Source of the DNA: Escherichia coli | GTDB lineage: Bacteria > Pseudomonadota > Gammaproteobacteria > Enterobacterales > Enterobacteriaceae | Length of the DNA: 64,000 bases | Reading direction: 5' to 3' (one strand) | Assembly: GCF_030013595.1 (NCBI RefSeq) | Contig: NZ_CP122769.1 | Shown here: piece by piece, positions 35,492 through 41,629 of the stretch | Layout of the letters: the number at the start of each line of letters is the position of its first letter | Position numbering within the stretch: position 1 is the stretch's first letter | Program-made: the position numbers and the translations under genes | The notes under the pieces: model-generated | The model's input: the letters and a program-made list of their open reading frames with translations, nothing else | Database searches by the model: none | Told to the model about the DNA's origin: nothing

Positions 35492-35877
35492 GGTTGCGAT
35501 CCGCTTTCAGGAGGGAGTAGTAGAAAGGGGACTGGAAATTTCAGAAAGCAGGTCATGTTAATTCAGACCTGAGCCTTTTAAAGGCAGGAAACGGATTTAT
35601 CTCTGGTTGCTGGTTAAAGCCGGTATTCCGTGCCTTTTATCAACAGAATGCCCCTCTGATATATGTTACTTTTGCGGTTTATGAAGGAACGGGATCTGGA
35701 ACATAAGATACCCGGTCAATCAAAATTCCAGTTCAACAGGTATAGAAACTTCAGCGTGATGAAATATGGTGTCACACCATATATACGCCTCACCAGAAAT
35801 CCAGCGTCCTGAACTAAGCCTGGGGAACATATATAAGCGCTGCGCTTTAAAAATAATCAAAAATCAGGAGAGTTAAT

Positions 35878-37119
35878 GTGAATCTACAATCCGGACAAAA
35901 CATACCGCTTCAGCAATCTGCGATCAGGCTGAATCTTCAGTACCCTGCCAAATCCGGCTTTAAAGGCGAACCCGATACCTGCCTCTTCCTGCTTAATGCT
36001 CAGGGAAAGGTAACCGGCGATTCTGACTTTATCTTTTATAATAATCTGTCTTCTCCTGAAGGGGCAGTAAAGCTCGTTACCGGTTCTCAGCAGTCCAGCA
36101 TTGAGATAGCACTGGATCGTGTTCCGGCGAACGTCAGTAAGATTGCGATCACCGTTGTCATTGATGGTGAAGATACTATCAGTGGGCTCAGTTTATTGAG
36201 CATTCAGGCTCCTGGTATCGCTGATTTTCAGGCTGAGACTCAGGGCCGCAGTGAGAAAGCAATCATCCTGGGTGAAGTATATCGGCACAATGGCGCCTGG
36301 AAGCTTCGTGCGCTCGGGCAGGGTTTCAACGGTGGTCTTGAGCCTCTGGCCATTAGCTTTGGCGTTGATGTCGCACAGCCAGCTCCGCAGCCAGCAAAGC
36401 CCGCTCGTATCAGTCTGGAAAAGAAACTTGAAACCAGATCTCCGCGCCTCGTAAGCCTCGCTAAAAAAGCCTCGGTCAGTCTCACTAAAAATAAACTGGA
36501 CACCCTTGAGGCAGCGGTTGCATTTGTACTTGACGCATCCGGCTCAATGAGTGGCCAGTTCAGTAAGGGCAACGTTCAGTCTGTGCTGGACCGCATCGCC
36601 GTTCTTGCCGCCCAGTTCGACGACGACGGTGAAATGGATGTCTGGGGATTTGGAGAGAAGCACAAGAAGTATCCAAACGTCACACTGGACAACCTGGACA
36701 CATATATTCAGTCCATTCGCGGGTCTGGAAAGCGTTCAGCCTGGGAGAACCTGCCGGGACTTGGTGGGACAAACAATGAGCCCCCTGTGATGGAAGAAAT
36801 TGTCGACTACTTTAAGGACTCGAAAATCCCGGTATATGTTGTATTTATTACCGATGGCGGGATCAGCAAGACCCGGGCGATTAAAGATGCAATCCGGCGT
36901 TCTGCCAACTACCCCATCTTCTGGAAGTTTGTCGGCCTGGGTGGTTCAAGCTACGGTATCCTCAAAAATCTGGATGACTTTACTGACCGCCGGGTTGATA
37001 ACACCCACTTCTTTGCCATGGATGATTTCGGTTCGATCAGCGATGAAAAGTTATATGATAATTTACTGGAAGAATTCAGACCGTGGATCGATGAAACAAA
37101 AAGGTTAGGCATCCTGTAA
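35878..37119 (+). CDS. terF: TerF (TerD-domain + vWA domain) protein
   Basis: 413 aa; N-terminal TerD-like domain, C-terminal vWA (VLDASGSM); GTG start with aggag RBS. Confidence 0.8.
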
Positions 37120-37681
37120 TACGCACAGTTTTCGCATGGTTAAAGGAGCTCTACAGCAGCTTAATACTGTAGAGCCTTTGTTCACTGGAAATCGTACAGG
37201 GAGGAGCATATGGACCGCATCAAGTACCTGAAATGGATAGCTGAAGAATCACCAACTGATGATGAAATCGACAACTACGATAGTATCATTAGTCGGGGCG
37301 CAGAAAGGGCCGAGAAGGTTCAGTTGTCTTTAAGACGTTAATATACGGGAGTTTAAATGTTCGCAGAAATCAAAGATAATTATTCGTTAGGTGGATAAAG
37401 AAAGGTTGCCATTACCAGCTTTCGACGAGTCGAAAATAAAAACCTTATTTATAGTGACAGGGAGTATGAGCTGACGCTTGCCAATGGAACAATAATTAAA
37501 AATGTACTTAGAAAAGAAGAGTGGGAACTGTTAGAAAGCAATTCAATTAAGGTTATATTATAACGAAAATATATTTACAGTTTTGGATAGGTTTCAAACG
37601 AGTCCGGACATTTGTACCTGAAGTATCTGACATTACAGTTAAGTGACGATTATGTCAGCACGTCTGTTGCTGGCAGCTTAG

Positions 37682-37963
37682 CTATCGGTCTAAAAGCTGA
37701 TCCATTAATAATTCTTCGTAAAGCCCAGAGGTATCGGGCTTTATTACAATATCCGTTATTTCGAAGCGTTCAAGTACAAATTGCAGATATTCCGGAGTAA
37801 CGTAGTAGGGATCAGGTTCAGCCAGATTAGTATAGAGTGGGTCTTCTGCTGCATTAATGTCATAATCAATGCACATATGAAACCACTGCAAAGGTGGATC
37901 CCAGCCTAACATCACCTGAACAATTCCCTGATTGCTTTTCACCTCATACCAGTGCTGGCTCAT
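37682..37963 (-). CDS. hypothetical protein
   Basis: 93-aa ORF. Confidence 0.35.
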   Translation of the reverse strand: MSQHWYEVKSNQGIVQVMLGWDPPLQWFHMCIDYDINAAEDPLYTNLAEPDPYYVTPEYLQFVLERFEITDIVIKPDTSGLYEELLMDQLLDR

Positions 37964-38012
37964 ACTTAGTCCTTAAGAAAATTTGTCATCGGAAAATAAC
38001 ACGAAGCCTGCA

Positions 38013-38204
38013 TCATCGAGGCGCATAACCTTCTTCCCTTAACGCCTGTTGTAATTTATCAACTGCGCTTTTCATTACCCAGGCTTCTTCGTCACTCACA
38101 GCACAACCACGTAGATCGCTCCAGCTCAGACGTTTAACAAATTGAGCAAGGGCCATAGTTTCGTTCTCATCAAGCCGCAAACTCAGTGTCTCAATACCTT
38201 CCAC
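38013..38204 (-). CDS. small hypothetical protein
   Basis: 63-aa ORF. Confidence 0.3.
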   Translation of the reverse strand: MEGIETLSLRLDENETMALAQFVKRLSWSDLRGCAVSDEEAWVMKSAVDKLQQALREEGYAPR

Positions 38205-38295
38205 TATCTAACCTCCCTTATAATGAAAAATGGCGCTTTACTTCTGACCAGATGCCGAAGCCTTGAATGCAGCCGGAACTGTCGTTGTTTCTACT

Positions 38296-38667
38296 TTACA
38301 GAAATGGAATTAAAAAGTGGTGATGCTGGGCACGTTTCTTTTCCAGCCGGGGTTTAAGCCAGAGCTGAAACTCATTCAACTTCTCAGCAGCCAAAACCGC
38401 TTCAACGGGGAAAACTTTATATTTACCCTGTTGCTGAGGTTCACCCAGCCATCGCCTGATGGCTCCGTCAGTCCATAAACGAGTCTCTTTTAGCCTAGTT
38501 ACAGTGACCCATTTTCTGGACCATTCATCAAATTGTCGCTGGCGATCCCGATAACGTTGTTCTTCCTGCTGCCGAAGCCACTCGCGATCAACAGCAAATT
38601 TTCGGTATCCAACAAAGAGCCCTTGTACTTTGGCCATGTCATATTCCGGTTGCTTAGAGTTACTCAT
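38296..38667 (-). CDS. hypothetical protein (basic, Arg/Gln-rich)
   Basis: 123-aa ORF. Confidence 0.4.
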   Translation of the reverse strand: MSNSKQPEYDMAKVQGLFVGYRKFAVDREWLRQQEEQRYRDRQRQFDEWSRKWVTVTRLKETRLWTDGAIRRWLGEPQQQGKYKVFPVEAVLAAEKLNEFQLWLKPRLEKKRAQHHHFLIPFL

Positions 38668-38970
38668 TCAACCAAAACCTAAACGTCGATACAAACTCTG
38701 TTTCATAACCAGGGTTTTATCCTTACCGCGACAGTAAGTAACAGGGGCTGCATAAACCGGTCATTTAGTCCGTTATGCAAAAATTATTGAGGATCCGGGC
38801 TGTTAAACTGTTCTTCCTCTTTCGCTTCCGGTGAAAAGGGGAGGTGTCACCCTGCGAGCCCGTGTAGTGAAAGGGATTCGTCGTAATACAGGCCAAAGGC
38901 TAACATGACCGCAAAGGACGCCCGGGCGACCGGATACCTGCCGGGTTGTGCGATGTAAAATCCGGAAGCA

Positions 38971-39402
38971 GTGATAACACAAACAGGCCCCTACAGCGTA
39001 AGGATTGTGATGGACGATAAAGAGCAGTTTACGAATCTTGTGGCAAAGCATGCCTCCGGACTCACCGAAGAGCAGCTGGCCGGGTACGATGCCTGTTCCC
39101 TGGATGGTGAATGCGTCACGCCTTCATACGAGGTTTTCCGGGGGTATCGTACCCGCCACACACTGGATGAATTTCTGGAGATGGCCATATCGCTGAATGC
39201 CATCCACCCGGATGAATATTTAACGGATATGCTGCTGAAGCCTCATGAGGTGATCGGCGCTCTGGCCGATGAAGGCGACCAGCTGAACAACGCCACCCCG
39301 GTTTATTTCTTTCCGGATACCGGCGTCTATGCAGCGGCCGTTAGTGAAACCCGGGTGCTCGATGCCTGGCTTTGCTGGCCATGCTACCCGGCGAACTGGT
39401 AA
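38971..39402 (+). CDS. hypothetical protein
   Basis: 143-aa ORF; likely start at internal ATG about 39010 (MDDKEQ). Confidence 0.4.
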   Translation: MITQTGPYSVRIVMDDKEQFTNLVAKHASGLTEEQLAGYDACSLDGECVTPSYEVFRGYRTRHTLDEFLEMAISLNAIHPDEYLTDMLLKPHEVIGALADEGDQLNNATPVYFFPDTGVYAAAVSETRVLDAWLCWPCYPANW

Positions 39403-39876
39403 CGCGGCCGTTGGAATTGCACCGGCCGGATACGAATTTAACCGACCCCGTGGCGGGAAGGCTATCAGAGTTGCATGTCCTCATCCCTCAAGCCCCCTGC
39501 CAGGCCCCAACGTGCTGTCAGGCTTCGCCTGATTCCCGATCTGCGCCGATACTTCAGCCGATAACTTTTTGTTTTCTTTTTATTTTCTTCCCATCTCCTC
39601 AAAAATCGCGGGCGGCGTGGACAGGGCACCATTGCCGCATGTGGGGTCTTAATAAGGGCAGGGTGGTCAGTTTTGCTCGATGCCAGGGGTAGGCCCTCCC
39701 CTTCATGGGATGAGGACATGCAAGTAAGCTAACTATCTGAAATGACGAAGGTTCATTTGGTGAATGTCGCTTCATATTAATGTTGTGTCACTTATGATCG
39801 TATGTAGCTGGTTGCAAAGAGGAGCGATGAGACAATAAAGTTGTATCGCTAACAAGATTTATGCTGCCACATAGTA

Positions 39877-39975
39877 ACAGCCTAAAAGTTGTACGCCCTA
39901 TTTAACAGCTTTTAGGCTGTTAATTTGATATTACAGCTTTTAGGGTGTATGTTTAGGAAACAGCCTGCAAGGTGT
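39877..39975 (+). promoter_or_regulatory. hipBA promoter with four phased operator-like inverted repeats ACAGC-N6-GYTGT
   Basis: Sites at 39877-39892, 39905-39920, 39933-39948, 39960-39975 (27-28 bp spacing). Confidence 0.55.
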
Positions 39976-40002
39976 ATCAGAGGAAACTACTGAGGCCAGC
40001 TT

Positions 40003-40299
40003 ATGATCAATAATGATTACCCGTTAAACACGCTCAACCAGCTGCGTCCCTTGCTCATTGGTTTTCGCAAGGCGAATGGCCTGACGCAAAAAGACCTGTC
40101 CGAAAGGTTAGGCGTCACTCAACAGACATACTCACGTCTGGAAGCCAACCCTGCCAGTGCGAGCATTGAACGGCTATTCAAGGTGTTTTCCATCCTGGGC
40201 GTAAAAATCAGCTTCTCCTCGGCAACCACCTCTTCAGAGAGGAAGCAGACGGAAGAAATGCTTAAATCAAACTCACCTGCACGACAGGAGGATTGGTAA
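40003..40299 (+). CDS. hipB: HipB-like HTH (XRE family) antitoxin
   Basis: HTH GLTQKDLSERLGVTQQTYSRLE; directly upstream of hipA. Confidence 0.85.
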   Translation: MINNDYPLNTLNQLRPLLIGFRKANGLTQKDLSERLGVTQQTYSRLEANPASASIERLFKVFSILGVKISFSSATTSSERKQTEEMLKSNSPARQEDW

Positions 40300-40303
40300 C
40301 GAT

Positions 40304-41629
40304 ATGAGCCGGAAACAGCAACGTCTGGTAATTTGGATGAACGGCATCAAAGTCGGGTACTGGGAAAAAAGCAAAGGGGTAGACAGCTTAGAATACCTTC
40401 CTGAATGGGTTGCTGACGAACAGGGAAGGCCGCTGTCATTGTCCCTTCCTTTTACTCCCGGGAACCAGGTCTGGCGTGGAAATGTGGTACGTGACTATTT
40501 TGATAATTTACTGCCGGACAGCGAAGGCATACGCAGACGTCTGGCAATGCGTTACAAGGCCGATAGCCTGGAGCCTTTTGATCTGCTGACGGAGCTGGGA
40601 AAAGACTGCGTGGGCGCGATACAGCTGCTTCATGACGGAGATGAACCCACTGATTTATATTCCGTGAAGTATCACCCGCTTACTGAATCAGAAATTGCGG
40701 CAACTTTGCGTAATACCACGGAGACATTGCTACCGGGCAGGCCAGAAGATAACGACGACTTACGTTTATCTATTGCCGGTGCTCAGGAGAAAACAGCCCT
40801 ACTGTGGCATGAAGATCGGTGGTGTATGCCGGAGGGTAATACACCAACGACGCATATATTCAAGCTACCGCTCGGACTTGTGGGGAACATGAAAGCCGAC
40901 ATGAGCTCGTCGGTTGAAAATGAATGGCTCTGCTCGGTACTTCTCGGCCAGTACGGGCTCCCCGTGGCAAGAACGCAGATTGCTCACTTTGAAGATCAGA
41001 AAGCGCTGGTGGTAGAACGTTTTGACCGAAAATGGTCAGGAGACGGACAATGGATCATTCGTTTACCCCAGGAGGATATGTGTCAGGCCCTGGGCGTTTC
41101 GCCATTACGAAAATATCAGGCGGACGGCGGGCCAGGTATATCGGAAATTATGGAGGTTCTGAGTAATTCAGACCGTGCTGAGCGTGACAAAGCGCAGTTT
41201 TTTATGACGCAGATAATTTTCTGGATGATGGCCGCAACAGATGGCCACGCTAAAAATTTCAGTATTTCTATTGGGCCACAGGGACGTTATCACCTTACAC
41301 CAAACTATGATGTGTTGTCGGCATGGCCGGTGATCGGTCATGGGAACAATCAGATATCCTGGCAGAAGTGCAAACTGGCGATGGCCGTACGTGGCAGTAG
41401 CAACTATTACCAGATATATCGAATACAACGACGCCACTGGATCAGGCATGGTGAGATAACCGGCCTGAGTAAACAGCAGACAGAGGCGATGATAGAGGAA
41501 ATCATCGCCAGAACCCCGGGTGTCATTGAACGTGTTAGCGGGCTTCTTCCGGACCAGTTCCCCCAGCAGCTTGCGGAAAGTATTTTTGATGGAATGAGGC
41601 AGCAATGCAGGCGCCTGGCTGAGAAATGA
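40304..41629 (+). CDS. hipA: HipA-family Ser/Thr kinase toxin
   Basis: 441 aa; motifs SIAGAQEK and DGHAKNFSI. Confidence 0.9.
   Translation: MSRKQQRLVIWMNGIKVGYWEKSKGVDSLEYLPEWVADEQGRPLSLSLPFTPGNQVWRGNVVRDYFDNLLPDSEGIRRRLAMRYKADSLEPFDLLTELGKDCVGAIQLLHDGDEPTDLYSVKYHPLTESEIAATLRNTTETLLPGRPEDNDDLRLSIAGAQEKTALLWHEDRWCMPEGNTPTTHIFKLPLGLVGNMKADMSSSVENEWLCSVLLGQYGLPVARTQIAHFEDQKALVVERFDRKWSGDGQWIIRLPQEDMCQALGVSPLRKYQADGGPGISEIMEVLSNSDRAERDKAQFFMTQIIFWMMAATDGHAKNFSISIGPQGRYHLTPNYDVLSAWPVIGHGNNQISWQKCKLAMAVRGSSNYYQIYRIQRRHWIRHGEITGLSKQQTEAMIEEIIARTPGVIERVSGLLPDQFPQQLAESIFDGMRQQCRRLAEK

Follow-up and report, generated by a model that had tools for sequence, protein, structure and literature searches.

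The antitoxins of the RelBE and DinJ-YafQ toxin-antitoxin (TA) systems carry a RelB/DinJ ribbon-helix-helix (RHH) domain and their genes stand next to those of RelE, YafQ or ParE toxins. A second, commonplace product of plasmid accessory regions is the pseudogene formed by deletion fusion or by a nonsense mutation, with intact alleles in sister plasmids. In this work we have analyzed the interval between a terF-like gene and hipBA, positions 37,200 to 39,402 of a 64,000-nucleotide stretch of Escherichia coli DNA [RefSeq: GCF_030013595.1, contig NZ_CP122769.1], the whole of which is called the window below. The interval contains six small reading frames, designated A to F, and with high probability represents two decayed plus-strand leftovers (A and B) and four intact, independent small genes (C, D, E and F) in a variable segment of an IncHI2 plasmid, with no TA pair among them. 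A RelB/DinJ-domain gene did belong to the locus; it is found in relatives of the plasmid and is missing from the window. The case is one of ordinary deletion and pseudogenisation in a plasmid accessory region: ORF A is an in-frame fusion, and B has one premature stop and intact alleles in sister plasmids. It is peculiar only in that a very successful plasmid lineage has fixed the scar and in that ORF A is listed by RefSeq as an ordinary hypothetical protein.

When positions 37100-39500 were used as a query, matches were obtained in 1,462 PLSDB records and in 579 of the 5,426 complete E. coli genomes. Numerous plasmids of E. coli and Salmonella, ~150-260 kb in size, were 100% identical to it; related records have been typed IncHI2A, MOBH and MPF_F. 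Because the 100% matches are to IncHI2 plasmids, the replicon is assigned by sequence to IncHI2. The small ORFs which a preliminary description had placed between terF and hipBA on both strands lie exactly there (Table 1); on identical plasmids RefSeq annotates five of them (A, C, D, E and F) and nothing at 37357-37563, the position of B. All six products were scanned against Pfam, NCBIfam, PHROGs and PADLOC; the assignment of D to DUF7706 and a weak match of E to JetB were the sole results. Relative loci are denoted by L-numbers, among them L021 (Klebsiella variicola IncHI2A plasmid NZ_CP044051.1), L022 (pE-33-mcr-9), L024 (a pOXA-48-type IncL plasmid), L025 (IncN) and L035 (Enterobacter hormaechei pKM58_1, NZ_CP126812.1).

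ORF A, frame B and the 1,317-bp deletion

The full locus, as present in L012-L017 and L021, comprises in order terF, genes for proteins of 151, 179 and 92 amino acids (aa) and B, then C, D and E on the opposite strand, and then F. In blastn comparison with L012, window positions 35800-37255 correspond to L012 1128-2583 (99.8% identity), 37258-38652 to L012 3901-5310 (94%) and 38693-39723 to L012 6059-7089 (94%), so that at the first junction the window lacks 1,317 bp (L012 2584-3900). By this deletion the 151-codon gene lost codons 17-151 and the 92-aa zinc-ribbon gene its first ~65 codons, and the 179-aa RelB/DinJ-domain gene was lost entirely. The junction GAA TCA CCA A/CT/GAT GAT GAA ATC keeps the reading frame, and an identical junction, GAATCACCAACTGATGATGAAATC, is found in pE-33-mcr-9 (L022). 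The predicted product of ORF A is composed of MDRIKYLKWIAEESP, the start of the 151-aa protein (codons 1-15), a Thr encoded by codon 16, which spans the junction, and DDEIDNYDSIISRGAERAEKVQLSLRR, the last 27 residues of the 92-aa Cys4 zinc-ribbon protein (codons 17-43). Its N-terminus also matches the 150-152 aa proteins of L010 and L011; the 151-aa gene is intact in these two loci and in pKM58_1, and the 92-aa gene has relatives in plasmids of Klebsiella, Pseudomonas and Vibrio. The two halves of ORF A thus match two separate full-length genes of an undeleted relative, joined in frame, and on this comparison ORF A is a chimeric deletion-fusion ORF. Since full-length homologues exist for both truncated genes, the window form must have been derived by deletion, which argues against an origin of the L012-type locus by insertion.

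The scar is far more common than the full form. The 92-aa protein used as a tblastn query matched 708 PLSDB records over residues 66-92 only, that is, over the scar, whereas the full segment was covered to at least 80% in a single PLSDB record, the K. variicola plasmid; a full-length 92-aa gene is also carried by Citrobacter freundii NZ_CP055589.1.

Frame B runs in six-frame translation as a single frame from the ATG at 37357 to the TAA at 37561-37563 and is broken by an in-frame TAA at 37396-37398; it reads MFAEIKDNYSLGG, stop, RKVAITSFRRVENKNLIYSDREYELTLANGTIIKNVLRKEEWELLESNSIKVIL, stop. The preliminary description had recognized a decayed gene at 37357-37560, which was correct, and had explained it by a split across frames near 37390, which gives way to a nonsense codon within one frame; the second and larger sign of decay, the ORF A chimera left by the 1,317-bp deletion, had been overlooked. 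No in-frame ATG, GTG or TTG follows the premature stop of B, therefore no truncated product can start there.

Six-frame profile searches and comparison with intact homologues, which the same description had proposed as a check, revealed both homologues of B and intact 68-aa alleles with Tyr at position 14. By tblastn a homologue was found on a Pantoea plasmid (E=7e-12), and profile matches went down to 1e-39. Pantoea vagans pPant4 has an uninterrupted 68-codon ORF with 47% identity to B and a Tyr at the position of the stop in the window, and in the profile search, which collected 11 clusters, Gly-Tyr occupies positions 13-14 in every one. The intact 68-aa alleles fall into P0063 and a Pantoea-type clade; P0063, found on contigs in 140 blocks of the assembly collection, is identical at 67 of 68 positions to the window frame with Tyr14 restored. 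Codon 14 is TAC in L012, L021 and pE-33-mcr-9 and TAA in the window. A 60-mer containing TAC was found exactly in 5 PLSDB records and with one mismatch in 710, the latter unannotated at the B site. With intact homologues, a premature in-frame stop and no rescuing start downstream, B is a nonsense pseudogene which arose by a TAC to TAA change at codon 14. About 710 PLSDB plasmids share the deletion scar and almost certainly the stop codon too, and the record counts (710 against 5) indicate that the stop is no sequencing error but a fixed feature of the dominant IncHI2 lineage of E. coli and Salmonella. As pE-33-mcr-9 has the same junction and an intact B, the deletion came first and the nonsense mutation later. 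Neither A nor B would be expected to make a functional product.

Genes C, D, E and F

The ratios of nonsynonymous to synonymous substitution rates (dN/dS) against diverged alleles are 0.065 for C, 0.19 for D, 0.04 for E and 0.12 for F (E and F against L012), and because they fall between 0.04 and 0.19 we regard all four as real genes under purifying selection.

C belongs to a family of at least 141 representative clusters (50% identity; E<=1e-3) of proteins of ~100 aa each, with the pattern 'MSQH..GWDxPLQ.FF.VI..LYSNL'. Many members are encoded on plasmids of Enterobacterales, Pseudomonas, Ralstonia and Vibrio, and on other plasmids their genes lie in co-directional runs of small hypothetical genes, with antirestriction, ParA-like ATPase, topoisomerase, PAPS-reductase-family and Arc-family genes among the neighbours. 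A family member used as a tblastn query gave no match in phages, and a eukaryotic FN3/phosphatase protein of 3,500 aa that had come up as a member was rejected as spurious. The predicted fold of C (predicted local distance difference test, pLDDT, 88) matched no toxin or antitoxin fold. Among its best structural matches are the Rhs/polymorphic-toxin immunity proteins TriX (8s2m_A) and TriTu (7zhm_D), with which the model shares a predicted three-stranded meander followed by helices in a cytoplasmic protein of ~100 aa.

D is a member of DUF7706 (PF24806), matched with 89.9 bits (E=1.1e-25) over positions 7-63 of the 63-position model, whose gathering threshold is 27 bits. Its predicted fold (pLDDT 91) consists of three helices after a disordered N-terminus and found only generic helical matches; an RHH fold, considered from the sequence pattern, was not supported by the monomer model. 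Searches of Pfam and NCBIfam revealed no DNA-binding domain of the RHH or helix-turn-helix (HTH) families in D, for which the structural model is of the monomer only. Homologues are encoded on 2,744 PLSDB plasmids, including pOXA-48 (IncL), IncN and IncF types, and at 71% identity the gene stands alone beside a HAD_PNKP gene (polynucleotide kinase-phosphatase-type HAD) and a gene for a RecA-dependent nuclease. The 7.8-kDa DUF7706 protein of pOXA-48 is 51% identical to D, both being plasmid-borne proteins of ~7 kDa. The settings differ: the pOXA-48 gene ends an operon that starts with a gene for a 395-aa RelB/DinJ-domain protein and faces umuDC, whereas D lies between E and C. Abundant expression has been reported for the pOXA-48 copy only; therefore this family member, at least, is strongly expressed. 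On other plasmids (L024, L025 and L018) DUF7706 and B-family genes occupy equivalent positions at operon ends, in IncN-like plasmids after virB11 and a PLD nuclease gene and facing the relaxase gene.

E has homologues on 1,591 PLSDB plasmids. Four diverse members gave no match in Pfam, and the sole match of E was to the C-terminus of PADLOC JetB (E=6.6e-5), on which weak basis its C-terminal half may be a winged-helix-like domain. For F neither a family match nor, by sequence, a relative of solved structure was found, and sequence searches of the PDB with E, F and the profiles of C and D gave nothing significant.

The arrangement of E, D and C raises the question whether they form one co-transcribed three-gene module in this lineage, with E as its DNA-binding regulator. 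They point in the same direction and are separated by 91 and 49 nt, their order is kept in the window-type, L010 and L012-L017 plasmids, and the JetB match of E would suit a regulator. However, homologues of E adjoin unrelated genes in Klebsiella and Vibrio plasmids and occur without D or C, the homologues of D and C likewise have unrelated neighbours, and C has been lost from a major lineage in which E and D are still under selection; nor is there a Pfam DNA-binding domain in the four diverse E proteins. We consider such a module unlikely. The reading of separate small plasmid accessory proteins, each acting by itself, suits the distribution of C, D and E better, and their size, folds and genomic company suggest that, rather than being enzymes, they most likely bind or modulate proteins of the host or of competitors. 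They would have accumulated as accessory small proteins in an indel hotspot and not as an addiction module.

Toxin-antitoxin readings of the locus

The 179-aa protein of the full locus resembles the RelBE and DinJ-YafQ antitoxins in its N-terminal RelB/DinJ domain, which scores above the curated cut-offs (TIGR02384, 48.8 bits, cut-off 45.65; Pfam RelB, 33.9, cut-off 22.4) and matches E. coli RelB (4fxe, E=3e-6). Unlike them it has an unrelated C-terminal extension of ~110 residues, which has no family assignment, and its gene is followed by the zinc-ribbon gene and B and not by a gene for a RelE, YafQ or ParE toxin. The 92-aa protein has two Cys-x2-Cys pairs, the zinc-ribbon pattern, and belongs to no family. 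The RelB-domain gene, found in L012-L017 and L021 within the segment missing from the window, is, as far as these domain matches go, the only gene of the locus that resembles an antitoxin, and its strand is opposite to that of C and D.

It could be argued that the RelB-domain, zinc-ribbon and B genes made up a TA-like operon with either B or the zinc-ribbon protein as the toxin, and that loss of the antitoxin forced the inactivation of B. The compact arrangement (a 4-nt overlap between the RelB-domain and zinc-ribbon genes and a gap of 16 nt before B) and the passing scores in the RelB/DinJ models are in keeping with this, as are two independent deletions that took the RelB-domain gene: that of the L035 type removed the zinc-ribbon gene and B as well, and that of the window type truncated the zinc-ribbon gene and was followed by the nonsense mutation in B. 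However, pE-33-mcr-9 has the same deletion as the window and an intact B, so that B is tolerated without the RelB-domain gene, and for this reason B as the toxin of a lost RelB operon was rejected as the leading idea. Elsewhere, the relatives of B are coupled to a different upstream ORF of 45-85 aa rather than to a RelB or zinc-ribbon gene, in some cases closing a type IV secretion operon, behind a PLD nuclease gene, and homologues of the zinc-ribbon gene lie in arrays of unrelated small genes. Neither B nor the zinc-ribbon protein has a toxin family match, and among defence and toxin models no convincing match was found for any of the three proteins. A lost operon of this kind is therefore judged very unlikely.

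The pairing of C with D as a TA-like unit, raised in the preliminary description (37682-37963 and 38013-38204), fares no better. Adjacency is real: both genes are small (93 and 63 aa) and lie on the same strand 49 nt apart with the smaller, acidic one upstream, and a bona fide TA module, hipBA, is near. A functional pair is not supported by the rest of the evidence. Upstream of the C homologues with 68-74% identity (L003-L007) there are unrelated genes or no gene at all, and none of A, B, D, E and F lies within 5 kb; D occurs without C in L008/L009, L011, L035 and in pOXA-48, IncN and IncF plasmids, and no homologue of C adjoins that of D in the IncL (pOXA-48), IncN and IncF contexts inspected. 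L011 and pKM58_1 keep D with C reduced to ~18-20 codons. That this arrangement is common is suggested by ~445 PLSDB records in the same D and E identity bands as the C-deleted type, and thus about that many IncHI2 plasmids seem to have lost C and retained D. Because C and D each persist alone, neither can be a toxin dependent on the other. Moreover, each gene has its own Shine-Dalgarno (SD) sequence (AAGGA for C and GGGAGG for D) across the 49-nt gap instead of a coupled overlap, neither partner matched a TA family in Pfam, NCBIfam, PHROGs or PADLOC or a known toxin in its predicted fold, and the only antitoxin-like gene of the locus is on the other strand and has been deleted from the window. 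It is highly improbable that C and D constitute a new type II TA pair. As for the idea that the TAA in B is a sequencing error or is read through, with B expressed normally, the single-base difference from the intact alleles is outweighed by the missing restart codon and by the 60-mer counts (one mismatch in 710 plasmids sequenced independently, TAC in 5), and since the TAA-A context is not a known recoding site we practically dismiss it.

What we propose instead is that the interval between the terF-like gene and hipBA is a variable accessory segment in which the 1,317-bp deletion fused the start of the 151-codon gene in frame to a zinc-ribbon tail, giving the 43-codon ORF A and removing the RelB/DinJ-domain gene, and that a later TAC-to-TAA mutation then struck codon 14 of B. 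E, D and C on the minus strand and F on the plus strand have stayed intact and been selectively maintained, each with its own family present independently in many plasmid types, usually in arrays of small genes of unknown function. Several points weigh against this proposal. ORF A retains the SD and ATG of the 151-codon gene and could be translated; E, D and C, being co-oriented with short gaps, could be co-transcribed and could cooperate in some lineage-specific way; and the TAA in the 710 one-mismatch records has been deduced from their lack of annotation and from listed examples rather than by inspection of each record.

The variable segment, its flanks and its bearing on IncHI2 plasmids

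The coordinates of all features are given in Table 1.

Table 1 Features of the terF-hipBA interval and its flanks in the window
Feature	Position	Strand	Remarks
terF-like TerD + vWA gene, 413 aa, left flank	35878-37119	+	Annotated as vWA domain-containing protein, downstream of terZABCDE-like genes
ORF A, 43 aa	37210-37341	+	RefSeq hypothetical protein WP_000374059.1
Deletion junction, 1,317 bp	37255-37258		Relative to the full locus; lost DNA is L012 2584-3900
Pseudogene B, 68 codons	37357-37563	+	Six-frame translation; unannotated in RefSeq and PLSDB
Premature stop TAA, codon 14 of B	37396-37398	+	Ancestral TAC, Tyr
Gene C, 93 aa, intact	37682-37963	-	RefSeq-annotated; its family of ~100-aa proteins has no name
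Gene D, 63 aa, GTG start, strong SD	38013-38204	-	Pfam DUF7706; predicted small three-helix protein
Gene E, 113 aa, intact, no named family	38296-38637	-	WP_001151575.1
Indel site	38653-38692		~748 bp extra in L011 and L012
Gene F, 130 aa, acidic, intact, no family	39010-39402	+	WP_000341066.1
hipB-like HTH regulator gene and hipA-family toxin gene, right flank	40006-41629	+	Annotation of identical plasmid

Between terF and the helicase gene at least three architectures have been found. The full form is rare, the window type combines the 1,317-bp deletion with the stop codon in almost all records, and in the Enterobacter type the deletion is another one and the F-hipBA-HNH segment is missing next to E. 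In this last type, seen in L011 and E. hormaechei pKM58_1, the deletion took the RelB-domain gene, the zinc-ribbon gene, B, and C beyond its first ~18-20 codons, and left D and E intact. Since the Enterobacter IncHI2A deletion is independent, the RelB-domain region has been lost at least twice. The comparison with pKM58_1 was made for window positions 37256-37910 and 38659 onward.

At the indel at 38653-38692 the relatives (L012 5311-6058; L011 3077-3235) carry a gene for a very hydrophobic peptide of 51-52 aa (MFITDGM...LRRE), absent from the window, which recalls type I toxins or small membrane peptides in size and composition. A unit of 253 bp at 39471-39723 is bounded by perfect 17-bp inverted repeats (TTGCATGTCCTCATCCC / GGGATGAGGACATGCAA); its strand folds far better than shuffled sequences (z=-4.7), and it gave no Rfam match. 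The homology between the window and L012 stops at 39723, the end of this unit, and in some Enterobacter plasmids the match is confined exactly to the unit between its repeats, these included. One copy is present in each of 1,167 PLSDB plasmids; a multi-copy miniature inverted-repeat transposable element (MITE) was considered and rejected, as no plasmid has more than one copy. Candidate explanations of the unit are a relic of a MITE-like element, a recombination module and a structured RNA. Upstream of hipB, at 39870-39948, there is an imperfect palindrome of 23 nt (ACAGCCTAAAAGTTGT / ACAGCTTTTAGGCTGT core) and a 21-nt direct repeat 28 nt apart, which are probably HipB operator sites; these predicted sites differ from the hipBA operators of E. 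coli K-12.

On the left flank the terF-like gene is the last gene of the ter (tellurite-resistance) cluster, and its relatives have Pfam TerD and vWA-TerF-like domains. At 37150-37175, 30 nt past the stop codon of the terF-like gene, inspection by eye showed an inverted repeat of 8 bp, CTCTACAG...CTGTAGAG, with CCTTTGTT after it. The terminator scan did not report this repeat, which may act as a weak terminator for the ter operon. The promoter/terminator scan gave nothing usefully above shuffled expectation, and an Rfam scan of 36500-40500 (E<=1) gave no match.

Taken further, the C family could be a new plasmid-borne class of inhibitors or orphan immunity proteins directed against a competitor toxin or host defence, DUF7706 an abundant modulator, and the lost RelB-domain, zinc-ribbon and B operon a new three-gene addiction-like module; we hold this extended interpretation to be quite unlikely.

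For IncHI2 plasmids, the deletion-and-decay reading has mainly practical consequences. In the ~700 sequenced plasmids of the group, many of them resistance plasmids (some records being named for mcr-1 or mcr-9), ORF A is listed as a normal hypothetical protein though it is a deletion chimera, and the dead gene B is left wholly unannotated. As lineage markers, the deletion junction and the TAC/TAA site offer a simple way to distinguish IncHI2 sub-types. The stretch between terF and the helicase gene emerges as a hotspot of gain and loss, from which the RelB-domain operon was lost twice independently, and a false TA lead is removed. As a modest side interest, three small-protein families widespread on plasmids, those of C, D (DUF7706) and E, are brought to attention.

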